Origin: a virus
Length of the DNA: 64,000 nt
IMG/VR virus record: IMGVR_UViG_3300032236_000971
Coordinates: 1-64,000 of that record
Strand: one strand, 5' to 3'
Of this stretch, positions 3-11,972 are shown in pieces. The notes under the pieces are model-generated. The model did no database searches. It was not told where the DNA came from and saw only the letters and a program-made list of their open reading frames with translations. Numbering within the stretch: position 1 is the stretch's first letter; every line of letters begins with the position of its first letter. Made by a program: the position numbers and the translations under genes.

Positions 3-254
3 TTGCTTGCCTTGATGAAGGACAAAAACTTCACTGAGGTTCGCAAGTGGGTTAAGAACAACGTTGATTCAGACGTCAATATGCTGTATACAACCTTTTA
101 TGATACAGCATATGATTATTTTGAACCGCAGTTTATCCCTGCTCTTGTTGTGCTTATCGGTAAGTATCAGTATCAGAACGCTTTCGCTGCTAATAGCGAA
201 ATCAATTTTGCTTCGTTCTGCGCCGAGGTTATGATTGAATTGAGTATCAAGTAA
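3..254 (+). CDS. 44: Clamp loader large subunit (T4 gp44), C-terminal part, truncated by window start
   Basis: KNFTEVRKWV...YQYQNAFAANSEIN C-terminus typical of gp44; order 44-62-regA. Confidence 0.85.
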   Translation: MLALMKDKNFTEVRKWVKNNVDSDVNMLYTTFYDTAYDYFEPQFIPALVVLIGKYQYQNAFAANSEINFASFCAEVMIELSIK

Positions 255-664
255 TGGCAGAAAAGTATAACTGGGAGTGGGAAAATAACATAAACTCAGG
301 CAAAGAACTCATTGATATTGATTCACCGCAAGAGCACAAATATAATGCTTGGAGGACTAACAGTTCTCTAAGCAACTTTAGAGACACTATCTTTCAAGCT
401 AATAAGATGAATATCAATCATCATCTCACTAGCAAACTTCAGTATCATTATCTTTTTCATTCTATTCGTAAACAAAAGCGTTTCGGTAAAAAGAAAACCG
501 ATGAGGATAAGCGCATCGAGAAGGAGTTGAAGGTAGAGCAAGAGCTAATCACCTTAGTTCAAGAACATTATAAATATAATATTGTCAGAGCTAAAGAAGC
601 CCTGAAAATTCTGTCAAAAGAACAGATAGATATTATTAGAAAAAAACAAGAAAAAGGTGGATAG
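254..664 (+). CDS. 62: Clamp loader small subunit (T4 gp62)
   Basis: LQYHYLFHSIRKQKRF, EALKILSKEQ...KGG motifs; position between 44 and regA. Confidence 0.85.
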   Translation: MAEKYNWEWENNINSGKELIDIDSPQEHKYNAWRTNSSLSNFRDTIFQANKMNINHHLTSKLQYHYLFHSIRKQKRFGKKKTDEDKRIEKELKVEQELITLVQEHYKYNIVRAKEALKILSKEQIDIIRKKQEKGG

Positions 665-666
665 TT

Positions 667-1062
667 ATGGTTGTAGATTCCTTAATTGAGGTGAAAATTG
701 CTGAAGAAGAAGATTTCCTAAAGATTAAGGAAACGCTCACGAGAATCGGGGTGGCATCCCGCAAAGATCAAAAGCTTTATCAATCCTGTCATATTCTGCA
801 TAAGCAGGGTAAGTACTATATCGTTCATTTCAAAGAGTTGTTTGCATTAGACGGTAAGCCATCTGACTTCACATCTGAGGATAAAGGTCGTCGTAATACG
901 ATCATTCAGTTGCTTGAAGAATGGGGGTTGATTAAGGTAGTTGAATCAGCTACAATTGCTGATCCAAAAGCACCTATGTCTCAGGTAAAAATTATTCCGC
1001 ACAAGGATAAGTCAAACTGGACACTTGAAGCTAAATATAACATTGGACGAAAGAAGAAGTAA
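667..1062 (+). CDS. regA: Translational repressor RegA
   Basis: DFLKIKETLTRIGVAS...LYQSCHILHKQGKYYIVHFKELF signature. Confidence 0.97.
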   Translation: MVVDSLIEVKIAEEEDFLKIKETLTRIGVASRKDQKLYQSCHILHKQGKYYIVHFKELFALDGKPSDFTSEDKGRRNTIIQLLEEWGLIKVVESATIADPKAPMSQVKIIPHKDKSNWTLEAKYNIGRKKK

Positions 1063-1418
1063 TGTTCAAAATCTTTGCTATGAAAACAAAGCCGAAAACC
1101 TCGGCTGATGAAAAAATTGAACAAATTATCAACTTACTGTTTCCACCTCTTGAACTTCAAACTGACAAGAATGGAGACAAATTTCATATCGACTACTCAA
1201 TCGATACGAACCTAGAAGCTGCTCTGATGGACCTCGAAGATGGTCATAACGATGCTGCAAGCCAAAAAACTATCAGGAATTGTACTGATAGGATCATTAA
1301 AGTAAGACAACTTTTGGAAGCATATCGCGAAATTGACGATGAGGTAAAGTACTTCATCGCTGACGATCTTGAGGAGAACAAAATTGAGAAAATTCAGGCT
1401 TCAGGCGGACAATATTGA
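1062..1418 (+). CDS. Hypothetical protein
   Basis: Translationally coupled ORF after regA. Confidence 0.6.
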   Translation: MFKIFAMKTKPKTSADEKIEQIINLLFPPLELQTDKNGDKFHIDYSIDTNLEAALMDLEDGHNDAASQKTIRNCTDRIIKVRQLLEAYREIDDEVKYFIADDLEENKIEKIQASGGQY

Positions 1419-1620
1419 CGCATTCATAACATCACTCGAAGAAATGATCGATGCCCGTGATGATATGTGGCAGGAAGAGAAATTTTGTAATTATAAGCAG
1501 ATGGTGAAAATCGAAGAGAAACGATATCATCCAGCAAAGAAGGCTATGCGTGAGGCGCTTCATGCTTTCATTATCGAAGTGATCGAAGAAGAATCTTGAG
1601 CTTGACTTTGAAAATAGTTG

Positions 1621-1649
1621 TTGACTTCTCCTTCTAGGTGGGGTACAAT
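1621..1649 (+). promoter_or_regulatory. Sigma70-type early promoter
   Basis: TTGACT-17-TACAAT upstream of a small ORF with AGGAG RBS. Confidence 0.75.
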
Positions 1650-1675
1650 AATAGAGTTGAAACAGGAGCTAAAAA

Positions 1676-1843
1676 ATGACCCTCACTTCTCTTTTTGCCG
1701 AGTTCAAGTCTCTCCCCTCCGCTGAAGCTAAGGTTGAGTACCTTCGCTCATTAGCTACGCTTAACCTCCCCTACGACATTAATTACGAAGCTCTAGTCGC
1801 CGCCTGGGAACGCATAGCTCGAGTTGAAGTCGCTAAAGCTTAA
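1676..1843 (+). CDS. Small early hypothetical protein (55 aa, not in ORF track)
   Basis: AGGAG RBS, ATG 1676 (MTLTSLFAEFKSLPS...), TAA 1841-1843. Confidence 0.6.
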   Translation: MTLTSLFAEFKSLPSAEAKVEYLRSLATLNLPYDINYEALVAAWERIARVEVAKA

Positions 1844-1857
1844 CAATAAAAAAAATA

Positions 1858-1926
1858 AAAAAATCTGTTGTCTAGCTACGAAAGCTGGTTGACTTCCTCG
1901 ACTGACGCTAGTATACTATATGTATG
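1858..1926 (+). promoter_or_regulatory. Early promoter with conserved upstream element
   Basis: AAAAAATCTGTTGTCTAGCTACGA then TTGACT-17-TATACT-ATATGTATG; same layout at 15112-15180. Confidence 0.8.
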
Positions 1927-1965
1927 GTTGGTTGAGGTTGTCACCTCATTTACAGGAGCTGAGCA

Positions 1966-2157
1966 ATGAAAACTTTCACTGTGTACGGTTCGTTCTACGG
2001 CTCTGACGAGCTTCCCGAGGCGATTGCCTCTTTCCCTACCTACCTTGAGGCGGAGATTTTCGTTCGCGATTATCCCGACTCTGACCCTCTCGTTGAGTAC
2101 GATCGTTACCTGATTGAGATGACCGTTGGTGGCGCTCGTTTCGCTACCTACGCCTAA
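1966..2157 (+). CDS. Small acidic early protein
   Basis: AGGAG RBS, downstream of early promoter. Confidence 0.65.
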   Translation: MKTFTVYGSFYGSDELPEAIASFPTYLEAEIFVRDYPDSDPLVEYDRYLIEMTVGGARFATYA

Positions 2158-2353
2158 TAGGAGCTTGACTATGACTGTATACGTTCTTCTCGTCGGCTAT
2201 GAATATGAGGGGCATGCGTGCCTCGGTGTTTACTCGTCCGCCCAGGAAGCGCAGGAAGCTTTCGCAGCCGCTGACTGGCTGGGTGGCTACCCTGTGATCG
2301 AGGAACGAGTCCTCGGCGTCCCTGCAGAAGCTATCGACCTCTAGGAGACAACC

Positions 2354-2536
2354 ATGTTCGTAGCAATTCTCACGAATTTCGGTAACACCATCTATAGCGG
2401 TAACGACCTGTCGGCTGCTATTGCTAAGGTTGAGGCTGCTGGCTTTGAAGCCACGGTCCAGTTGTTCAAGCCCAACGCTCAATGTGGGCTTATGAGTTTC
2501 AGTCCGATCGGCGGCTGGAGGACAATTATCGCATAA
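2354..2536 (+). CDS. Small early hypothetical protein
   Basis: AGGAG RBS. Confidence 0.6.
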   Translation: MFVAILTNFGNTIYSGNDLSAAIAKVEAAGFEATVQLFKPNAQCGLMSFSPIGGWRTIIA

Positions 2537-2542
2537 AGTTGG

Positions 2543-2571
2543 TTGACTTCCTCGTCGTTGTGTAGTATACT
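2543..2571 (+). promoter_or_regulatory. Sigma70-type early promoter
   Basis: TTGACT-17-TATACT, paralogous to the promoter at 1889. Confidence 0.8.
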
Positions 2572-2700
2572 ATATGTAAGGTTGAAAGAGGAGCTTCTGA
2601 TGTCTACGGTTGATACCCTGATTGTGTTCGGACCACTTATCATGATGGCGCTCGGTATGGCGCTTGGGCTTGTCATTTACACTATCCGTGAGGTGCGCTA

Positions 2701-3060
2701 ATGTCTAGTATTGAGCTTTTGATCTCTGATAATCGTGGTATCTATATCCCTCGCGATTTCGCCCTGTATCACGAAGATATGTCTAATGTTTCAGCCGAAA
2801 ATATAGAAATTCTAAAAGCTGGTCCAAATCATGAACATTACTGGGAAGCTTGGGATGCAGTTACTCGTGATGCTTACCATACAGACGCCCAAGGTAATAT
2901 TTGGCGGCTCTGGCAAAACGGCGACCTCTGGGTTTACTGCGAAGCTTTGATGACCGACGAAGAGTACTACAACTTTTTTGGCGATCATCGTTACGAGCTT
3001 GACTCAGATTCTCGTTTGGAAACTGACAACTGGTACGACACTTCTGCGGAGCTTTGCTAA
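2701..3060 (+). CDS. Hypothetical early protein
   Basis: GAGGT RBS; ORF in early cassette. Confidence 0.65.
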   Translation: MSSIELLISDNRGIYIPRDFALYHEDMSNVSAENIEILKAGPNHEHYWEAWDAVTRDAYHTDAQGNIWRLWQNGDLWVYCEALMTDEEYYNFFGDHRYELDSDSRLETDNWYDTSAELC

Positions 3061-3274
3061 TGTCTGATACGTTCTTTTCTCGACCAGCTGACGTAAAGCT
3101 TCAAGAGCTGATTGATGAGTTGTATAAGCGACTCAGAGACAGCCGTCGTCTGTTAGCTATGTATGATCAAGACCCTGATCTTGATCGTCGTGGTCACGAC
3201 AAAGGTTACGCTCAGGGCGTTCGCGAGGAAATTGGTTACCTCGTTCGTTTACTCGACAAATATGAGCGTAGCTA

Positions 3275-3646
3275 ATGACTATGCATCTGTTGCCTGCGTT
3301 CGTTTCAACAACGAATATTCGTAAGCGCAAGTCAAAGCTTACGGGTAAGGCGAAACTTCAACTTGCGGCGCATCAGCAGTGGGTTGAAAAAATGACCAAA
3401 GGTATGACGTCAGATAAAAAAGTCCTTGACAAAGCCTGGCGAAAAGAGTATACTAGTTCTATGGCTGTTGATCGTTCGGCATTTCAGAAGTCAGGTATGG
3501 CTCCTGGTGTTTGTGCGAAGCCAGAGGAAAAGGTTTACTCGGGTGAACGTAAGCTGCTAGGTATTGCTACGATGCACAAGTCCAATATGGTTCCTGTGTT
3601 CGCTAAGCAAGATGCCGAAGATATCGCTAGGATGAGGAGAGGCTAA
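3275..3646 (+). CDS. Hypothetical protein of T4-like phages
   Basis: C-terminal LLGIATMHKSNMVPVF motif recalled from T4-like myovirus hypotheticals. Confidence 0.65.
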   Translation: MTMHLLPAFVSTTNIRKRKSKLTGKAKLQLAAHQQWVEKMTKGMTSDKKVLDKAWRKEYTSSMAVDRSAFQKSGMAPGVCAKPEEKVYSGERKLLGIATMHKSNMVPVFAKQDAEDIARMRRG

Positions 3647-3906
3647 TGAGTGACGTTCAGATTCAAGCCCAAGATACGACAGGTAACTGGCGTACCTACC
3701 TAATCGTGGCAAATCAGTCACAAAGAATTTTGAGTGAGATGCGTTCTTTGCAATCTCGCTATCCGGACTACCGCATTCGTGCGATAGACAGTGATGGTCG
3801 TGTTGTTGACATCCTGTAAAATAGTGGTTGACTTTTGTAAAAAAAGTCAGTATGATATGAAAGTTGGTCATTCGACTGACTAAATAGAGTGAAACTGGAG
3901 AATCTG

Positions 3907-4188
3907 ATGACTAAGACTGCTAATGTTTTGAATGCTTTTATGAACGGCGAGAAGCTTACTGCAAAGCAGATTGCTGCTCGTTTCGGCGTGGGTAACCCTC
4001 ATCGTGTCGTTCATTATCTTCGTGAGCAGGGATATGCGATTTACCTCAACTATCACACTGATACGAAGGGTCGCGTAAAGTCGAAGTACCGCCTTGGTAC
4101 ACCTTCTCGCGCCATTGTCGCTGCTGGTATCGCGGCTCTTGGTGGAGAAGCTCTAGGACCAAACGCTCGTGCGGTGGGTTCCGTCTAA
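3907..4188 (+). CDS. Winged-helix/HTH DNA-binding protein
   Basis: GEKLTAKQIAARFGVGNPHRVVHYLREQGYAI HTH pattern; GGAG RBS before ATG 3907; promoter TTGACT-17-TATGAT at 3828-3856. Confidence 0.7.
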   Translation: MTKTANVLNAFMNGEKLTAKQIAARFGVGNPHRVVHYLREQGYAIYLNYHTDTKGRVKSKYRLGTPSRAIVAAGIAALGGEALGPNARAVGSV

Positions 4189-4649: not shown

Positions 4650-4726
4650 GGACCCTTAGCTCAGTTGGTTAGAGCATCGGACTTTTAATCCGCGTGTCCT
4701 GGGTTCGAGTCCCAGAGGGTTCACCA
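4650..4726 (+). tRNA. tRNA-Lys(TTT)
   Basis: Cloverleaf, loop CT-TTT-AA, CCA. Confidence 0.95.
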
Positions 4727-4809
4727 AATTGCTTGTAGGGAGAGCCGAGTCGCTCCCGTATGTATTGGAGAGGCGTAAGCCTGGCGGTATACAACAAGCA
4801 AACTAATTT

Positions 4810-4884
4810 TGGCGTATAGCTCAGTGGTAGAGCACTGTCCTGATAAGACAGGGGTCGATGGATCGTAACCATCTATGCCAACCA
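4810..4884 (+). tRNA. tRNA-Ile(GAT)
   Basis: Cloverleaf, CT-GAT-AA, atypical T-loop ATCGTAA, CCA. Confidence 0.92.
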
Positions 4885-4888
4885 ATAA

Positions 4889-4965
<77 letters not shown>

Positions 4966-4971
4966 AATAAC

Positions 4972-5064
4972 GGAAGAATGGCAGAGTCTGGCTTATTGCA
5001 CTTGTCTTGAAAACAAGCGTACGTTTGTAGCGTACCGTGGGTTCAAATCCTACTTCTTCCGCCA
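4972..5064 (+). tRNA. tRNA-Ser(TGA)
   Basis: Long variable arm, CT-TGA-AA, G73-CCA. Confidence 0.95.
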
Positions 5065-5193
5065 CTACAGGCTCGTTCTCGTGGTTCTCGAGATAAACGA
5101 AACGAGGATTGTCATCGGTGCATTTAGCCGTGTGTTAGCCGATGTAAAAGAAGCCGGTTGGCGAGTCAGGAGCCAGTTAACGGTGAGAAATTT

Positions 5194-5271
5194 CCTCTGT
5201 TGGTGTAGCGGTCAAACATACCCGCCTTTCAAGCGCGGAGATCATCGGTTCAAATCCGATACAGAGGACCA
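5194..5271 (+). tRNA. tRNA-Glu(TTC)
   Basis: CT-TTC-AA, imperfect anticodon stem, CCA. Confidence 0.85.
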
Positions 5272-5276
5272 AATAC

Positions 5277-5352
5277 GGACCATTAGCTCAGCTGGTAGAG
5301 CAGGAGACTCTTAATCTCTTTGTCGAAAGTTCGAATCTTTCATGGTTCACCA
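5277..5352 (+). tRNA. tRNA-Lys(CTT)
   Basis: Cloverleaf, CT-CTT-AA, CCA. Confidence 0.95.
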
Positions 5353-5413
5353 ATAAAGTGCTTGACTTCAGGTGCTAAATAAAGTATGATATAATCTAAG
5401 TTGGAGATTCGTT

Positions 5414-5701
5414 ATGCATAAGCTTTTGATCGTTGCGGTTAGTGCAGCTGCATTAGCTGGTTGTACAGCTAGAGAACAGCAGGTGTTGACGGCTGGAGCT
5501 GTTGGTGCAGTTGCTGGTGCTGTGATTGTTAATGAAATGAATCAGCCTCGTTCTGTTTATGTTGAGCAGCGTTATGATCGTCCTCATCCTAGATACGAAC
5601 ATCATTACGTACCTGTTCCTCCTCGTCGCCCTCGTTGTTTTACAACTTGGGAAAATACACATCGTGGTATGATCGAACGTAGAGTTTGTGATCGTTACTA
5701 A
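5414..5701 (+). CDS. Small lipoprotein, glycine-zipper-like
   Basis: Lipobox LAGC, GAVGAVAGA helix; own promoter TTGACT-17-TATGAT at 5362-5390. Confidence 0.75.
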   Translation: MHKLLIVAVSAAALAGCTAREQQVLTAGAVGAVAGAVIVNEMNQPRSVYVEQRYDRPHPRYEHHYVPVPPRRPRCFTTWENTHRGMIERRVCDRY

Positions 5702-5708
5702 AGTTTAT

Positions 5709-5784
5709 TCCTCTGTAGCTCAGTTGGTAGAGCATGGTGCTGTTAACACCAGGGTCGTTCGTTCGAGCCGAACCGGAGGAGCCA
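5709..5784 (+). tRNA. tRNA-Asn(GTT)
   Basis: Cloverleaf, CT-GTT-AA, CCA. Confidence 0.95.
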
Positions 5785-5789
5785 AATAT

Positions 5790-5865
5790 GCCCGATTAGC
5801 TCAGCGGTAGTAGCGCCTCCTTTACACGGAGATTGTCGGCGGTTCAATCCCGTCATCGGGTACCA
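5790..5865 (+). tRNA. tRNA-Val(TAC)
   Basis: TT-TAC-AC, CCA. Confidence 0.93.
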
Positions 5866-5870
5866 TTATT

Positions 5871-5946
5871 GGGGGATTAGCTCAGTTGGGAGAGCGACTG
5901 CTTTGCACGCAGTAGGTCATCGGTTCGATCCCGGTATCCTCCACCA
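5871..5946 (+). tRNA. tRNA-Ala(TGC)
   Basis: G3:U70, TT-TGC-AC, CCA. Confidence 0.95.
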
Positions 5947-6147
5947 AGTTCAGAACTAACAGAGGAAGTGAATGGTTACCCTCTGTGAATGACAACAAGA
6001 TGCTGGGAAACCCGATAAATCTAACCATAGAGTGCATCTAGTCAAGATTCTGAAAAGTGTGTTTGTGGGTGACGAGCTAGTGAAACCCTCAACGGTTGGT
6101 CGCGTAATAGACTCGCGGGATACCATGGTCAGTATCCCACCAGTTTC

Positions 6148-6223
6148 GCCCGTATAGCTCATCAGGTAGAGCAGTTGATTTGTAATCATCAGGCGGTGGG
6201 TTCGAGTCCTGCTGCGGGCACCA
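6148..6223 (+). tRNA. tRNA-Thr(TGT)
   Basis: TT-TGT-AA, CCA. Confidence 0.93.
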
Positions 6224-6229
6224 GTTTAT

Positions 6230-6304
6230 AGCAGAGTGGAGCAGTAGTAGCTCGTTTGGCTCATACCCAAAAGGACGATGGTGCAATTCCATCCTCTGCA
6301 ACCA
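6230..6304 (+). tRNA. tRNA-Met(CAT), initiator-like
   Basis: A1:A72 mismatch, GAGC/GCTC D-stem as in fMet, CT-CAT-AC, atypical T-loop TGCAATT. Confidence 0.8.
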
Positions 6305-6307
6305 TTT

Positions 6308-6378
6308 GCTCACATCTACTAAGCGTAAGTAATCCCGTTTGAGGGAGGATGTAGGTTCAAGCCCTACTGTGAGCTCCT
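6308..6378 (+). pseudogene. Degenerate tRNA-like element
   Basis: Acceptor GCTCACA/TGTGAGC and T-arm GTAGG-TTCAAGC-CCTAC intact; no canonical 7-nt anticodon loop; ends TCCT not CCA. Confidence 0.6.
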
Positions 6379-6379
6379 A

Positions 6380-6597
6380 AATTAATATTACGCCAGCATA
6401 GTTGCTAACGATATGGCGTAATTAACCAGAAGCGTAAGAAGCAGTTGGTATACCCCAATCTGAATACGGGTTCGAATCCTGTAGTCTCTAACGAGTAGCC
6501 GAAGGGTGGATGTTAGAGGTGTAAAATGGTCGAAGGTGCGGGCATGTTGGGTTCGTTTCCCATGGCATTCTGTAGCTATGCTGGCGTAATATTAATT
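6380..6597 (+). ncRNA. Unidentified structured RNA closed by a 22-bp perfect stem, with internal T-arm
   Basis: AATTAATATTACGCCAGCATAG / CTATGCTGGCGTAATATTAATT; internal TACGGG-TTCGAAT-CCTGTA. Confidence 0.7.
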
Positions 6598-6672
6598 GAT
6601 CCTGTACGCATCTGGTGAGGCGACCCCTCTGTCTAAGGGGCGAGGAGGGTTCGATTCCCTTCAGGATCGCCA
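6598..6672 (+). tRNA. tRNA-Asp(GTC)
   Basis: CT-GTC-TA loop (T37), G73-CCA. Confidence 0.9.
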
Positions 6673-6680
6673 CTAAATAT

Positions 6681-6756
6681 TGGGGATTAGTTCAGTTGGT
6701 AGAACGCAGGATTCTGAATCCTGATGTCCGAGGTTCGAGTCCTTGATCCCCAGCCA
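6681..6756 (+). tRNA. tRNA-Gln(CTG)
   Basis: TT-CTG-AA, U1:A72, CCA. Confidence 0.95.
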
Positions 6757-6898
6757 ATACGTGGTAAGGAAAGCCTAGAGCGTCGCAGCTGCAGCAAGCG
6801 ACAAAGTAGGATCGGTTCGATCGACCGATAAGAGGAGCATGGGCAAGTCAGAGGGAGCTAAACCGATGACTGGATACCGCACCTGCCACATTTAATTT

Positions 6899-6973
6899 GG
6901 TGCCTGAGGTAGATGGTAAATCGCGGGACTGCAAATCCTTGAGAACCCAGTTCGATTCTGGGAGGCACCTCCA
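6899..6973 (+). tRNA. tRNA-Cys(GCA)
   Basis: CT-GCA-AA, U73-CCA. Confidence 0.9.
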
Positions 6974-7081
6974 CCTAGTAGCTGGAATATTCGAGACAAT
7001 GGGGATGACCCAAGGATTAACAAGCGGAGTAGCTACCGCCTCTGATAGTAACCTAGACGATATTTTGGCGGATCCAATAAT

Positions 7082-7158
7082 GGTTGAATAGCTCAACTGG
7101 ATAGAGCATCGGTCTACGAAACCGAAGGTTGAAGGTTCGAATCCTTCTTCGACCACCA
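7082..7158 (+). tRNA. tRNA-Arg(ACG)
   Basis: CT-ACG-AA, CCA. Confidence 0.95.
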
Positions 7159-7163
7159 TTAAT

Positions 7164-7294
7164 GGGCTGACAAAGCTCTTTATTTTCTACCTAGAAACAA
7201 TAGATGAATTTATAAATTCTATTGGGTTCCTCTAGATGCGGTAAAGAGACGGTGCATACTAGTTAGATGGGTTCGAATCCCATTCAGTCCACCA
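7164..7294 (+). ncRNA. tRNA-like RNA with Ala acceptor (G3:U70, A73, CCA), T-arm, no D-stem and a long irregular helix; resembles the tmRNA tRNA-like domain
   Basis: GGGCTGA/TCAGTCC-ACCA; ATGGG-TTCGAAT-CCCAT; CTCTTTA/TAAAGAG, CTAGA/TCTAG, AATAGA/TCTATT helices. Confidence 0.7.
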
Positions 7295-7301
7295 TTATAA
7301 T

Positions 7302-7376
7302 GCGGTCATAGCTCAGGGGTAGAGCACTTCGTTGCCAACGAAGATGTCGTCGGTTCGATCCCGACTGGCCGCTCCA
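7302..7376 (+). tRNA. tRNA-Gly(GCC)
   Basis: TT-GCC-AA, U73-CCA. Confidence 0.95.
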
Positions 7377-7393
7377 TTACTATATAATATCAT

Positions 7394-7467
7394 GCGGGGT
7401 TGGTATATAGATTGTGCCCTAGCCTTCCAAGCTAGTGAAACGGGTTTGAGTCCCGTACCCCGCTCCA
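7394..7467 (+). tRNA. tRNA-Gly(TCC)
   Basis: CT-TCC-AA, U73-CCA, T-loop TTTGAGT. Confidence 0.88.
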
Positions 7468-7472
7468 TTAAT

Positions 7473-7549
7473 GCCCGAGTAGTCCAATTGGCAGAGGCGT
7501 CCGCCTTAGAAGCGGAATGTTGGGGGTTCAAATCCCTCCTCGGGCACCA
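7473..7549 (+). tRNA. tRNA-Leu(TAG), short variable loop
   Basis: CT-TAG-AA, 5-nt variable loop, A73-CCA. Confidence 0.9.
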
Positions 7550-7556
7550 AAATAAT

Positions 7557-7632
7557 GCTGCTTTAGCTCAGTTGGTAGAGCACCTGATTAGTAATCAGGT
7601 TGTCGGGAGTTCGACCCTCTCAAGCAGCACCA
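7557..7632 (+). tRNA. tRNA-Thr(AGT) with A34
   Basis: CCTGA-TT-AGT-AA-TCAGG, G1-C2 acceptor, CCA. Confidence 0.92.
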
Positions 7633-7709
7633 GCCCATATGGTCCAATTGGAAGAGGCGTCGGCTTCAAACTCCGAATGTTGTAGGTTCGAGTCCTACTA
7701 TGGGCACCA
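7633..7709 (+). tRNA. tRNA-Leu(CAA), short variable loop
   Basis: TT-CAA-AC, 5-nt variable loop, CCA. Confidence 0.88.
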
Positions 7710-7711
7710 AT

Positions 7712-7785
7712 GCTACCTTAGTGTAATGGGAGCACAAGAGTTTGTGGCACTCTTAGCACTGGATCGTAACCAGTAGGTAGTACCA
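7712..7785 (+). tRNA. tRNA-His(GTG), alphaproteobacterial type
   Basis: TT-GTG-GC; no G-1, G1:U72, A73; T-loop ATCGTAA. Confidence 0.88.
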
Positions 7786-7798
7786 ATAAATAAAGTTT

Positions 7799-7889
7799 AG
7801 GTGGGCTGCAGAGACGGTGGTTCTGCGACGGACTGTAAATCCGTTCCTTAATGGTAACACTGGGGGTTCGAATCCCTCCCCACCTACCA
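7799..7889 (+). tRNA. tRNA-Tyr(GTA)
   Basis: CT-GTA-AA, long variable region, CCA. Confidence 0.9.
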
Positions 7890-7913
7890 TTTTCTTAACC
7901 TTGGAGATAAACA

Positions 7914-8075
7914 ATGAAGTTTGAATTTACTATTGAAGAAATTAATACTGTTATGGCGGCTCTTGGTCGCATGCCTTATGAGCAGGTATTTCAGCTTGTA
8001 GAAAAGATCCGTCAGCAAGCTGCTCCTCAGTTGCAGGAAGCTCAGGCAGCACAGGCGGCTGAACAGTCAGAATAA
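7914..8075 (+). CDS. Small hypothetical protein (53 aa, not in ORF track)
   Basis: GGAGA RBS; MKFEFTIEEINTVMAALGRMPYEQVFQLVEKIRQQA... Confidence 0.65.
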   Translation: MKFEFTIEEINTVMAALGRMPYEQVFQLVEKIRQQAAPQLQEAQAAQAAEQSE

Positions 8076-8077
8076 CT

Positions 8078-8152
8078 GCCGATGTAGCTCAGTGGTAGAG
8101 CATTCGCTTCATACGCGACTGGTCGCTGGTTCAAGTCCAGCTTTCGGCACCA
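8078..8152 (+). tRNA. tRNA-Met(CAT), elongator (or Ile2)
   Basis: TT-CAT-AC, CCA. Confidence 0.85.
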
Positions 8153-8206
8153 ATCCACGCCATCCCGATACGTCGGTTGGCACCTCCAGTTTCCGGACTG
8201 GAGACT

Positions 8207-8282
8207 GCTCCTCTGGTATAGCTGGTGCGTACGCCTGTCTGAAGAACAGGAAGATGCAGTTCGATTCTGTGGGGGAGCACCA
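8207..8282 (+). tRNA. tRNA-Phe(GAA)
   Basis: CT-GAA-GA (G37), CCA. Confidence 0.9.
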
Positions 8283-8419
8283 TTATATAAATACCTCAAA
8301 AAGAGGTAGATAATGTATAAAGCATACATACTAGCGATTGATAACATAAACAAATTAGTTTGGTTGGTACTGATGCTACATTGGTTAGCTGACGGTACGA
8401 AGATAGTTGATATCTTCAA

Positions 8420-9061
8420 ATGAAAACCATCGCTCTCTTCAACCATCATCCTGAATGTTCTGATCAGTGTTGTAAGGGTATGATGAGAGCATTAGAACCT
8501 CACTACAAAATAAAATGGTTTACTGTTCGTGATGATATCAAAGAGGTAGTTAAGAATGTTGATTGTATTGCTTTCCCTGGCGGGATTGGTGACTCTGATA
8601 GCTTTTTTGACTACTTTTCTCGCACACGTTCTAATGTTATTTCCTCGTTCATTGACGATGGGGGTAAATATCTTGGTATATGCATGGGGGCTTACTGGGC
8701 TGGGTCTCGTTACTTTGATATTCTTGACAACGTTAATTGCGTTCAATACATTAAGCGTCCTACCGCTGAGATAAGAAGAAGTTACGGAACAGTAGCTGAT
8801 ATTGAGTGGCTAGGTCAAAGAGAAAAGATGTTCTTTTATGACGGATGTACATTCGTTGGTTCCGGACGATATGATACAATTGCTAAGTACGCTAATGATG
8901 AGCCGATGGCAATAATTCAGGGTAATGTAGGTATCATAGGTTGTCATCCTGAAAGCGAAGAGTTTTGGTATGAAGAACCGTACAAATACCTCAGCGGTTA
9001 TTATCATGACGGTAGGCATCATAACCTACTACTTGAGTTTGTAGATAAATTATGGAAATAG
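8420..9061 (+). CDS. Class I glutamine amidotransferase-like protein (BPL_N type)
   Basis: FPGG, YLGICMGAY nucleophile elbow, HPE; TATAAATA at 8286-8293 upstream. Confidence 0.8.
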   Translation: MKTIALFNHHPECSDQCCKGMMRALEPHYKIKWFTVRDDIKEVVKNVDCIAFPGGIGDSDSFFDYFSRTRSNVISSFIDDGGKYLGICMGAYWAGSRYFDILDNVNCVQYIKRPTAEIRRSYGTVADIEWLGQREKMFFYDGCTFVGSGRYDTIAKYANDEPMAIIQGNVGIIGCHPESEEFWYEEPYKYLSGYYHDGRHHNLLLEFVDKLWK

Positions 9062-9642
9062 TTGAAAACTATATACACGTTGTTAAGCTAGGATTAGATA
9101 TTAAAGCTATTACTCATAGCTGTGATAGAATGTACGAATTTATTAAAACACAATTCAATGATAAACCAAAGTGGGCAGTAGCTGGTTCAACATATACAAC
9201 TAGCCTCTTTAACGAATATAATTTGTTTTTGTATCCGTTGCCTGAATTTCATAAATTATATAACGAGATAAAAACGTATTTTCATTCGGTGAAAGATAAT
9301 CCTAACGAGAAATATTATATTCAGTGTTGGTTAAATTATTATCAATTTGGCGAGTATATAGATTGGCATAATCATTGGCCTCCTGAAGTTAAATCATGGC
9401 ATGGATTTTATTGTGTATCTGGGGAAGGTTCTTATACTTCATATAAGCTCCCTCCTGATATGAAAGAAGTTGTTATACCAACGGTAACAGATCAACTTGT
9501 TTTAAGTAAAAGTGACGGGGATTTTCACCGCTCTTCTGAGTGGAATGGACAAACTCCGAGGGTAACGATAGCATTTGATATCGTGCCTCAAACTTTTTTC
9601 AATGCCCCTTTTGATATTATTAATCATTGGGTGCCTATTTAA
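9052..9642 (+). CDS. Putative 2OG-Fe(II) oxygenase-like protein
   Basis: WLNYY..G.YIDWHNH...HRS...RVTIAFD double-stranded beta-helix pattern. Confidence 0.65.
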   Translation: MEIVENYIHVVKLGLDIKAITHSCDRMYEFIKTQFNDKPKWAVAGSTYTTSLFNEYNLFLYPLPEFHKLYNEIKTYFHSVKDNPNEKYYIQCWLNYYQFGEYIDWHNHWPPEVKSWHGFYCVSGEGSYTSYKLPPDMKEVVIPTVTDQLVLSKSDGDFHRSSEWNGQTPRVTIAFDIVPQTFFNAPFDIINHWVPI

Positions 9643-9732
9643 GGAGGGTTGGCTGAGTGGTCTAAAGCACTCGTTTGCTAAATGAGCGAACCTTAATCGG
9701 TTCCGTGAGTTCGAATCTCACACTCTCCGCCA
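9643..9732 (+). tRNA. tRNA-Ser(GCT)
   Basis: TT-GCT-AA, long variable arm, G73-CCA. Confidence 0.95.
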
Positions 9733-9733
9733 T

Positions 9734-9807
9734 ATCGGTGTGATGTAATGGTAACATGACGGTCTCCAAAACCGTTCTTCCGGGTTCGAGTCCTGGCACC
9801 GGTGCCA
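9734..9807 (+). tRNA. tRNA-Trp(CCA)
   Basis: CT-CCA-AA, G73-CCA. Confidence 0.95.
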
Positions 9808-9811
9808 TTTT

Positions 9812-9928
9812 AGGTTGTGTTCAGCATACAATGGATGAACCAGTCGGTCGTGGGTTCAATCCCCACCAGGAGCTCTTTGCTTCTGTAGCTCAGTGGTAGA
9901 GCAACTGCCAAAAAGTACAACCTGTTGA
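9812..9928 (+). ncRNA. Array unit 1: YrlA-like Y RNA (circularly permuted tRNA mimic)
   Basis: Frame AGGTTGTG-TTCAGCA...TACAACCT-GTTGA; inside T-arm GTGGG-TTCAATC-CCCAC, closed acceptor CAGGAGC/GCTTCTG, D-arm GCTC-AGTGGTA-GAGC. Confidence 0.8.
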
Positions 9929-9937
9929 ATTTAGTGC

Positions 9938-10211: not shown

Positions 10212-10306
10212 AGGATACCTTCAGCAAACATAACTTGATATTGGTTATCAATCTGACTTTTAATCAGACTTAGCGGTTCGAATCCGCAGTTAGTGTATCC
10301 TGTTGA
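10212..10306 (+). ncRNA. Array unit 4: acceptor-less tRNA-Lys(UUU) body
   Basis: AGGATAC-C-TTCAGCA...GTATCCT-GTTGA; D-like TTGATA/TATCAA, TCTGA-CT-TTT-AA-TCAGA, GCGG-TTCGAAT-CCGC. Confidence 0.78.
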
Positions 10307-10466: not shown

Positions 10467-10524
10467 AGATTCAGTTCCGCAACCAATCAAATCGACTTGA
10501 AATCGACCAAAGTGAATCTGTTGA
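10467..10524 (+). ncRNA. Array unit 7: carries Ser(UGA) anticodon stem-loop, abuts RBS
   Basis: AGATTCA-G-TTCCGCA...TGAATCT-GTTGA; TCGA-CT-TGA-AA-TCGA; followed by AAAGGAG and ATG 10539. Confidence 0.7.
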
Positions 10525-10538
10525 AAAGGAGAAGTGAA

Positions 10539-11972
10539 ATGAATACCTTTGTAAATGCCGTTGTTAATCAGTCTGCTCGTACCGAAAATGGTATGAAGGC
10601 TCGTCAGTCCACTGCTAATGCATTGACTGATCTGTTCTTCAAGATCGGTGCTATGCGTGGCCAGAATGTTATCCCTGCATGGACTGCTGCTTACGTTCAG
10701 GACGCTAAACTTGCTGCACGTATTGCTCTTTGGGCTCGCGATGTTCGTGGTGGTGCTGGTGAGCGTAAGATCTTCCGCGACATCCTTGTTGATCTTGCCA
10801 AGACCGATCCTTTTTATGGGGTAGGTCTTGCTCGTAAGATCCCTGAGTTGGGTCGTTGGGATGACTTCCTTGTTTTTGTTGGAACCCATCTTGAGGTTTA
10901 TGCTTTCGAAACTATTCGCGAAGCTCTTGAAGCTGGTGACGGTCTCTGCGCAAAGTGGATGCCTCGTCAGGGCGACGTAGCTGTAAAGCTCCGTAAGTAC
11001 CTTGGTTGGACTCCTAAGTTTTATCGCAAGCGTCTGGTTGAATTGACCAAGGTCGTTGAAACTCAGATGTGTGCTAACGACTGGGATAACATCAATTTTA
11101 ACCATGTTCCTTCTGTTGCTTCTGGTCGTTACAAGAAGGCGTTCTCTCGTCATACTGAAAAGTATAAGGAATGGACTGCTGCTCTTGTTTCTACTGATCC
11201 AAAGGTTAAGGAAACTGTGAAGGTTAACGCTGGTGCGGTCTATCCGTACGATGTGTTGAAGGGTGTAATCAACCACTATGGCCAGTACAACACCTCTAAC
11301 CTTCAGCATATTCAGGCTCAGTGGGATGCGCTTCCTAACTTCGTTGGTAATGCTAACATCCTTCCGCTTGTTGACGTTTCTGGTTCAATGACTTCGAAGG
11401 CTGGTGGTTATCAGTCAAAGTCAGAAGTAACCTGCCTTGATGTTGCTGTGTCTCTTGGTTTGTATCTCGCAGACAAGAACACTGGTAAGAAGTTCAAGAA
11501 TACGTTCTTGACTTTTTCTAGCAAGCCTTCGCTGCTTCATCTTCAGGGCAACATCCTTGATAAGGTAAAGCAGATGGTTACTTCAAAGTGGGAAATGTCA
11601 ACTAACTTGCACCTTGCTTTTGAAAAAATATTGTATGTTGCTCTTGAGTGGAAGGTTCCTCAGTCAGAAATGCCAGAAGTGTTGTTGATCCTTTCTGATA
11701 TGCAGTTTGATCAGTGCGCTCGTTACGACGACTCTGCTATGGAAATGATTAAGCGTAAGTATACTGAAGCAGGTTACGATGTACCTAACATTGTGTTCTG
11801 GAATCTCAATGCTCACGATAATGTTCCTGTCAAGTATGACACTCGTGGTGCTGCTCTTGTTTCTGGTTTCTCTCCTTCCATTGTTAAGGCTGTTTTACAG
11901 GCTGAAATGGGTAACTTTACGCCAGAGGCTATCATGATGCAGACTATCATGAACCCACGTTACGATTACTAA
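10539..11972 (+). CDS. DUF2828-family protein with C-terminal vWA domain (Ro60/TROVE-like RNA-binding protein)
   Basis: TENG, RDVRGGAGER, GRWDD, AKWMPR, VPSVA motifs; MIDAS VDVSGSM, LILSDMQFD, IVFWNL; start ATG 10539 after AGGAG. Confidence 0.85.
   Translation: MNTFVNAVVNQSARTENGMKARQSTANALTDLFFKIGAMRGQNVIPAWTAAYVQDAKLAARIALWARDVRGGAGERKIFRDILVDLAKTDPFYGVGLARKIPELGRWDDFLVFVGTHLEVYAFETIREALEAGDGLCAKWMPRQGDVAVKLRKYLGWTPKFYRKRLVELTKVVETQMCANDWDNINFNHVPSVASGRYKKAFSRHTEKYKEWTAALVSTDPKVKETVKVNAGAVYPYDVLKGVINHYGQYNTSNLQHIQAQWDALPNFVGNANILPLVDVSGSMTSKAGGYQSKSEVTCLDVAVSLGLYLADKNTGKKFKNTFLTFSSKPSLLHLQGNILDKVKQMVTSKWEMSTNLHLAFEKILYVALEWKVPQSEMPEVLLILSDMQFDQCARYDDSAMEMIKRKYTEAGYDVPNIVFWNLNAHDNVPVKYDTRGAALVSGFSPSIVKAVLQAEMGNFTPEAIMMQTIMNPRYDY

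Follow-up and report, generated by a model that had tools for sequence, protein, structure and literature searches.

A tRNA array in the genome of an uncultured T4-like phage contains a discrete, conserved and structured gene for a 131-nt RNA that has the top half of a tRNA with alanine marks, without a decoding arm. The gene was found in the first 64 kb (64,000 nt, hereafter the window) of a 107.9-kb IMG/VR virus record with an estimated completeness of 65%. We regard it as very likely that the element is a real structured RNA gene. The reading that we prefer, with a probability of about 0.55, is that the gene is functional and gives rise to a stable tRNA-like RNA, a non-decoding alanine acceptor with an arm that docks a partner.

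The replication genes of the phage are of the T4 type (gp43-type DNA polymerase, UvsX, DnaB-like replicative helicase and ribonucleotide reductase). Outside the window, at genome positions 73782-74089 (L083:1283-1590, + strand), a complete tmRNA of the two-piece (permuted), α-proteobacterial type is encoded in the record, with scores of 123.6 bits for RF01849 and 108 bits for RF04321. Its tag is ANDNNASRLALAA, and its gene directly precedes that of tRNA-Arg(tct). The two-piece tmRNA points to an α-proteobacterial host. No gene for SmpB, a FemAB-type transferase, a CCA-adding enzyme or AlaRS was found in the 108-kb record (~65% complete).

Location and anatomy of the 131-nt RNA gene

The tRNA array spans window positions 4650-9807 on the + strand and includes 26 tRNA genes, all of which encode the CCA end and most of which are 0-8 nt apart. 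The spacing of the 131-nt gene matches that of these genes, with 5 nt between the CCA of tRNA-Arg(acg) and its first base, and 7 nt between its last base and tRNA-Gly(gcc). The features of the gene are listed in Table 1.

Table 1. Parts of the 131-nt RNA gene and its two neighbours. Positions refer to the window; nt numbers refer to the element.
Feature	Window position	Strand	Basis
Whole tRNA-like RNA gene, 131 nt (element nt 1-131)	7164..7294	+	Sequence, fold, homologue with the same ends
Acceptor stem, 5' strand GGGCUGA (nt 1-7)	7164..7170	+	Pairs with 7284-7290; invariant in homologue
Joiner CAAAG, 5 nt (nt 8-12)	7171..7175	+	CAAA invariant; nt 12 is G, A in homologue
Interrupted long arm, 73 nt (nt 13-85)	7176..7248	+	Covariation, RNAalifold, free fold of L107 copy
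Linker ACGGUGCAUACUAGUUAG, 18 nt (nt 86-103)	7249..7266	+	17/18 positions same in homologue
T arm AUGGG-UUCGAAU-CCCAU (nt 104-120)	7267..7283	+	Identical in homologue
Acceptor stem, 3' strand UCAGUCC (nt 121-127), with A73 (7291) and encoded CCA (7292-7294)	7284..7294	+	
Upstream neighbour tRNA-Arg(acg), context only	7082..7158	+	ARAGORN/Rfam, 71.5 bits
Downstream neighbour tRNA-Gly(gcc), context only	7302..7376	+	ARAGORN/Rfam, 66.7 bits

The two acceptor strands, GGGCUGA and UCAGUCC, form seven pairs, among which G3:U70 (window 7166 with 7288) is the sole wobble. The T arm has a stem of five pairs and a 7-nt loop, UUCGAAU. Both helices are kept in the free fold and in the constrained fold of the RNA. 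A 7-bp acceptor stem, a 5-bp T stem, a loop of the form UUCRANY and a CCA end, all at the spacing of the array, are combined in this one element; the chance of finding a 7/7 acceptor partner at one fixed offset is about 0.001. The free-energy z-scores are modest, -1.86 for the 131-nt RNA and -1.88 for its copy in another phage (L107, described below).

A reading made from the sequence alone had described an acceptor with G3:U70, A73 and CCA together with a perfect T arm, and these can be read directly at 7164-7294 and persist in the folds. It had also observed that a D-stem is missing, and indeed neither a D stem nor an anticodon arm can be drawn. The long interrupted helix that it reported is present, and its placement can be refined: the helix starts 5 nt past the acceptor strand, which is the position of the D arm. 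The unpaired linker of nt 86-103 separates the long arm from the T arm. A terminator-like hairpin at 7164-7178 was considered and rejected, as it is not retained in the homologue.

Conservation in a related phage

A metagenome scan found a 129-nt copy of the element in two contigs (L106:513-641 and L107:4555-4683), which are identical to each other. The copy is 83% identical to the 131-nt element and has the same first and last bases, and the flanks are not conserved. For the 20 tRNAs that are common to both phages, the identity ranges from 60 to 84% with a median of ~73%, so the RNA is kept about as well as the most similar of these tRNAs. All differences between the two versions of the RNA are confined to nt 12-58 and 71-86. 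Regions 1-11, 59-70 and 87-131 are invariant, although with two distinct sequences of the RNA the invariance of its ends is uninformative on which base matters. The inner loop of the arm, GGUUCC (nt 62-67), is the same in both versions, and the linker differs only at nt 86, compared with differences at ~17% of all positions.

The source of the copy is a phage related to, yet clearly different from, the phage of the window, judging by the gene content of contig L107. Five genes upstream of its tRNA array have counterparts in the window at 254-4188, with protein identities of 43-74%. Downstream of the array, the gene content is unrelated. The order of tRNA genes is unlike the one found here, and the 129-nt copy is located between tRNA-Tyr and tRNA-Gln(ttg).

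Model R1 of the RNA scores 151-163 bits on the three copies (the element, L106 and L107) and at most 29 bits elsewhere in the sequences searched, where it matches ordinary tRNAs. A search for full-length homologues by blastn and megablast among 50,697 GenBank phage records returned only T-arm matches. No homologues were detected by blastn and nhmmer in 80 related IMG/VR loci around a Ro60-like gene. BLAST against 50 entire records of related viruses was likewise negative, as was model R1 on 27 loci surrounding a gene of L107 and on 25 whole related records, three of which are complete; exact-pattern scans of IMG/VR and of a genome collection yielded no copy. The closest relatives of the phage (86-87% identity in a nearby protein) have syntenic tRNA arrays that lack the 131-nt element. 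Since the gene is absent from these closest relatives, including three complete genomes, its distribution is patchy and it is dispensable for this type of phage.

Structure of the long arm

The 73-nt arm (nt 13-85) is supported by five to seven compensatory changes. It is composed of three helices, P1 (13-21/77-85), P2 (25-26/74-75 and 28-32/68-72) and P3 (35-38/58-61), and ends in a variable tip. Pairing is kept in both versions of the RNA at 32 of 32 pairs, with double changes at five of them (13:85, 14:84, 17:81, 29:71 and 38:58) and a one-sided change at 20:78. Six slid controls gave zero double changes and 30-44% pairing. The observed covariation was reached by 16 of 500 shuffles, a signal that is clean but thin, as it comes from two distinct sequences. 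RNAalifold independently recovers the same arm with seven double changes, and the free fold of the L107 copy agrees with it.

In the folds, the linker is either unpaired or forms a weak 3-bp hairpin. An alternative helix between nt 69-76 and 91-99 fits both sequences and is invariant; as in a tRNA, a stem would then precede the T arm by 4 nt. Of the two, the arm described above is favoured by the double change at 29:71.

Model R1 also aligns the tRNA-Gly(tcc) gene at 7394-7467 with the element at 7249-7283 (GCUAGUGAAACGGGUU versus ACUAGUUAGAUGGGUU, 24 bits). The aligned part of the tRNA includes the 3' strand of the anticodon stem, the variable loop and the T arm, opposite the linker and the T arm of the element. 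The linker may be a remnant of the anticodon and variable region of an ancestral tRNA.

Alanine identity

AlaRS recognises G3:U70 and A73 in the acceptor stem and does not need the anticodon. It charges minihelices made of the acceptor and T arms, and it charges tmRNA despite the missing anticodon. Of the 743 distinct tRNAs that ARAGORN predicts for the window and for related loci, all 30 tRNA-Ala have G3:U70, compared with only 4 of the 713 (0.6%) non-Ala tRNAs of related phages, none of which (0/713) has A73 as well. The alanine identity of the 131-nt RNA is therefore not due to chance. The whole combination of G3:U70, A73, T arm and CCA occurs twice in the 108-kb record, in tRNA-Ala (5871-5946) and in the 131-nt element.

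The AlaRS determinants named in the sequence-only reading are thus borne out, and G2:C71 is found beside G3:U70, A73 and CCA. The tRNA-Ala of the phage shares with the 131-nt RNA the pairs G1:C72, G2:C71 and G3:U70, A73, the CCA end, the 5-bp T stem and a UUCGAnY loop. The sequences of the acceptor and T stems of the two RNAs are otherwise unrelated, and the 131-nt RNA differs from tRNA-Ala in that it has no D arm, anticodon arm or variable loop. Its pair 4:69 is C:G, in contrast to the G:C of most tRNA-Ala and of that of this phage, and G20 is absent. Because of C4:G69 and the lack of G20 the efficiency of alanylation is uncertain and could be poor. On balance, we consider it fairly likely that the RNA is alanylated in the cell.

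Absence of decoding

The 131-nt RNA cannot read codons, as its anatomy shows: it has neither a D arm nor an anticodon arm, and its long arm ends in an unconserved tip. Between the two versions the arm tips diverge both in length and in sequence, which leaves no loop there to serve as an anticodon. A cloverleaf with a D arm and an anticodon arm presenting a 7-nt anticodon loop was not obtained. ARAGORN made no tRNA call on the gene, whether run at its defaults, with introns of 0-120 nt permitted or at relaxed thresholds, the Rfam tRNA model RF00005 does not match it, and no Rfam family matches it at gathering scores.

The RNA had been proposed to lack both an anticodon and a tag frame, and this is confirmed, as no reading frame is conserved between the two versions. 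Their single common open stretch falls within the base-paired 5' half of the arm; a 2-nt indel shifts it, and it has no tag-like tail at its end.

Proposed mode of action and alternatives

We propose that the 131-nt RNA is transcribed with the tRNA array and could be excised in the same way as the neighbouring tRNAs, by RNase P and 3' trimming, given that it has the same acceptor/T-arm minihelix, an encoded CCA and the same spacing. Host AlaRS would then charge it, as expected from the established rules of AlaRS recognition. The lower half of the tRNA is replaced by a rigid 73-nt arm with invariant inner loops and by the near-invariant linker, and it is on these loops and the linker that a partner would probably dock. 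The most likely job for such a molecule would be that of a charged, non-decoding look-alike of Ala-tRNA that engages a factor specific for the acceptor half. Candidate factors are EF-Tu, AlaRS, a ribosome-rescue factor and an anti-phage enzyme that attacks tRNA ends, while the arm would bind a second partner. Taken singly, each downstream role that could be named for the RNA is unlikely.

The plan of the RNA resembles that of species 1 RNA of phage T4 (rnaC; NC_000866 70908-71046, corresponding to L002:1409-1547, minus strand; 139 nt). Both are stable-RNA genes of ~130-140 nt in T4-type tRNA clusters, the T4 gene being located at the end of its cluster behind the tRNAs, and in both a terminal stem and a canonical T arm enclose long irregular helices. 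In contrast to the 131-nt RNA, the end stem of rnaC is imperfect and has no G3:U70, and its CCA is not encoded. Model R1 gives rnaC 17 bits (E 0.17), which is within the range of ordinary tRNAs, and beyond the T arm neither sequence nor model similarity is detectable.

The common plan suggests an explanation in which the tRNA half is a handle for processing and stability (RNase P, CCA end, nuclease resistance), the arm is a regulatory or protein-binding RNA, and charging is absent or irrelevant. This matches what has been supposed for T4 species 1 RNA, and it agrees with the observation that the invariant sequences include the arm loops and the linker besides the tRNA parts, and that the phage has several other tRNA-shaped non-tRNAs beside a Ro60-like gene. 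However, a mere handle needs neither G3:U70 nor A73, the combination that none of the 713 other tRNAs has. A search of the phage record for antisense targets of the conserved linker and loop, allowing up to three mismatches, found none, and T4 rnaC scores no higher with model R1 than any tRNA does. We consider this explanation unlikely, and the RNA is better accounted for as a chargeable acceptor of alanine.

The sequence-only reading had presented the element as a mini tmRNA-like RNA that could bind SmpB or EF-Tu. The general layout of a tRNA-like domain (TLD), an acceptor/T-arm minihelix with one long arm, stands, but kinship with tmRNA is not supported by the models, the missing D-loop analogue and the joiners. 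The two computational checks that had been suggested were both negative: ARAGORN in tmRNA mode with a lowered threshold found nothing in the gene, and the Rfam tmRNA models (RF00023, RF01849-51, RF02544 and RF04321), searched over 261 nt, had no match at E<=10. In the positive control, the tag-less tmRNA of phage DS6A, only 83 nt long, scored 43.2 bits (E 6.5e-14) against RF00023. The two-piece tmRNA of the phage itself served as a second control, with the 123.6 and 108 bits given above. The D-loop analogue of tmRNA (~10 nt, ..GGNUCGA..), expected after the 5' acceptor strand, is absent and the joiner CAAAG is found there. The arm is joined by 5 nt on its 5' side and by 18 nt on its 3' side, the reverse of helix 2 in tmRNA. 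The T loop is of the ordinary tRNA type, whereas that of the phage's own tmRNA is GGCAGUA.

The DS6A RNA (JN698994 28478-28560, locus L084) was described as 'little more than the TLD', and strong inhibition of tmRNA is reported for a molecule of similar make (PMC4131195); inhibition of tmRNA by a TLD-only RNA was seen in E. coli (PMC4131195, PMC11915505). CDS-less tmRNAs are listed for plastids and mitochondria (PMC11915505); tag-less forms comparable to that of DS6A occur in jakobid mitochondria and in Mallomonadaceae plastids. Like the 131-nt RNA, the DS6A RNA is encoded by a phage, has an acceptor with G3:U70 and A73 stacked on a T arm, replaces the D and anticodon arms by a single closed helix, and is without a tag frame, presumably non-decoding yet chargeable. 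It is unlike the 131-nt RNA in that it keeps the D-loop analogue and a short helix 2 and is recognised by the tmRNA model. The 131-nt RNA, on its part, has a 73-nt arm with the 5-nt and 18-nt joiners and no match to tmRNA models, and its gene is located inside a tRNA array of a phage that also encodes a complete tmRNA.

A tag-less mini-tmRNA of the DS6A kind would bind SmpB and EF-Tu, enter stalled ribosomes, and either block trans-translation or rescue ribosomes without tagging. The 131-nt RNA has the same three-way junction layout, with an alanine-type acceptor, a T arm, one long helix, and no anticodon or tag. Tag-less forms do exist in DS6A, jakobid mitochondria and some plastids (PMC4131195, PMC11915505), and the phage invests in trans-translation by having its own tmRNA. 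The same tmRNA argues against sabotage of trans-translation, since the two-piece tmRNA would need the same host SmpB: an RNA acting as an SmpB sponge would starve it, and the record has no SmpB gene. Together with the failure of the tmRNA models, where DS6A reaches 43.2 bits, the missing D-loop analogue, the reversed joiner lengths and the ordinary T loop, this makes the mini-tmRNA rather improbable. The 131-nt RNA has no detectable membership in the tmRNA family, and it may still act as a tRNA-like domain does.

Bacterial and phage group I tRNA introns are ~200 nt or more in size. A decayed or insertion-bearing tRNA gene, or an intron-bearing tRNA spliced to a normal one, in either case without a function as a 131-nt RNA, could be suspected from the location in a tRNA array, the absence from the closest relatives, as expected of an accident, and a folding energy only ~1.9 sd better than that of shuffled sequences, but it is highly improbable, given the 83% identity with exact ends between phages whose tRNAs are 60-84% identical and differently ordered, the preservation of pairing by every change in a paired column, and an arm well below the intron size. 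Removal of the arm leaves 58 nt without an anticodon arm, and ARAGORN with introns of 0-120 nt found no tRNA, so that splicing to an ordinary tRNA, which had been named as an outcome that would refute the sequence-only reading, can be set aside.

Other non-canonical RNAs in this and related phages

A YrlA-like match is located downstream of the array, at window positions 9828-9931 on the + strand; its 36.9 bits (E 1.8e-5) fall short of the gathering score, which is 69. It is followed by a weak tRNA-like match at 10232-10292 (+, 29.4 bits) and by a gene for a 491-aa protein at 10497-11972 (+), which matches PHROG 850 'RNA-binding protein' and the Pfam domains DUF2828 and DUF7788. The YrlA-like RNA and the 491-aa protein likely constitute a Ro60/Y-RNA-type module. 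Relatives of this Ro60-like protein were found in ~300 IMG/VR contigs.

Like the 131-nt RNA, YrlA (RF02553) is a tRNA mimic; it is found in phages and bacteria, and here the YrlA-like match and the Ro60-like gene are 2.5-3 kb downstream of the 131-nt gene. YrlA has a closed acceptor end and an open anticodon end, and the 131-nt RNA is the reverse. The ends of the 131-nt RNA form the acceptor stem, and no Ro60-binding stem is made from them. An identity with YrlA was rejected, since the match of 17.2 bits (gathering score 69), the only one that Rfam gives at E<=10, is an artefact that joins the T arm of the element to the D arm of the next tRNA.

Several loci of related phages have a separate family of ~120-nt tRNA-like genes (L059:3713-3834, L066:4762-4881, L050:627-749 and L070:280-400) that are missed by ARAGORN. 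They have an acceptor stem of varying identity, a D arm and a T arm, and at the place of the anticodon arm a strongly conserved insert of ~30 nt, GGUUAUCCUGnnAAGGAUACAGnCAGCAA, with a further hairpin. Genes of 99-111 nt (L063:4767-4877, L069:6485-6590, L053:5379-5477, L050:4143-4242, L018:16290-16396 and L034:16700-16801) combine a perfect acceptor stem with a T arm, CCA and two additional hairpins, and these have no ARAGORN call either. A home-made scan for acceptor and T arms at long spacing returned mostly artefacts, in which tandem tRNAs with similar acceptor strands were joined, and these were discarded.

In the array itself, the tRNA at 5194-5271 (+) has the anticodon UCA; ARAGORN calls it 'SeC', and it scores 53.9 bits as an ordinary tRNA. 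The same gene is also present in the arrays of L003 and L004, and this tRNA may read UGA. The 293-nt gap at 6304-6598 (+) contains an orphan T-arm-like hairpin at ~6351-6367. A tRNA-shaped match on the antisense strand, with 23.5 bits, spans 6308-6376, and the gap may hold a pseudo-tRNA or another non-canonical RNA. Further gaps of the array are located at 5946-6148, 6756-6899, 6973-7082 and 7889-8078.

Implications for phage tRNA arrays

Phage tRNA arrays are usually read as aids to codon usage or as spares against defences that cut tRNAs. The 131-nt gene serves neither purpose, because it has the charging end of a tRNA but does not decode. We rate it as belonging with the anticodon-less tRNA-like RNAs of phages, such as the TLD-only tmRNA of DS6A and T4 species 1 RNA. 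Since ARAGORN and Rfam miss such genes, they stay unannotated.

Should the RNA prove to be alanylated, nature would offer in it an alanine acceptor without an anticodon, one that is not recognised by the tmRNA models used here; the known acceptors of this sort are tmRNA and its tag-less forms. Its co-occurrence with a real tmRNA would provide a direct test of how phages use charged tRNA mimics. Possible uses include ribosome rescue, capture of EF-Tu or AlaRS, and decoys for enzymes that attack tRNA ends.

We speculate, as a doubtful extension, that the 131-nt RNA could be one member of a wide and undescribed class of phage RNAs that are charged with alanine yet do not decode. In this member the arm and the linker would replace SmpB or the anticodon limb and give access to the ribosome, or to another machine that uses aminoacyl-tRNA, without a codon. 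Alanine would be used in such a class because AlaRS does not need an anticodon. If such a class exists, it would give phages a route into ribosome rescue, or into defence and counter-defence at the 3' ends of tRNAs, that is separate from tmRNA. The finding also bears on a 50-year-old question, the purpose of RNAs of the T4 species 1 type in phage tRNA clusters.
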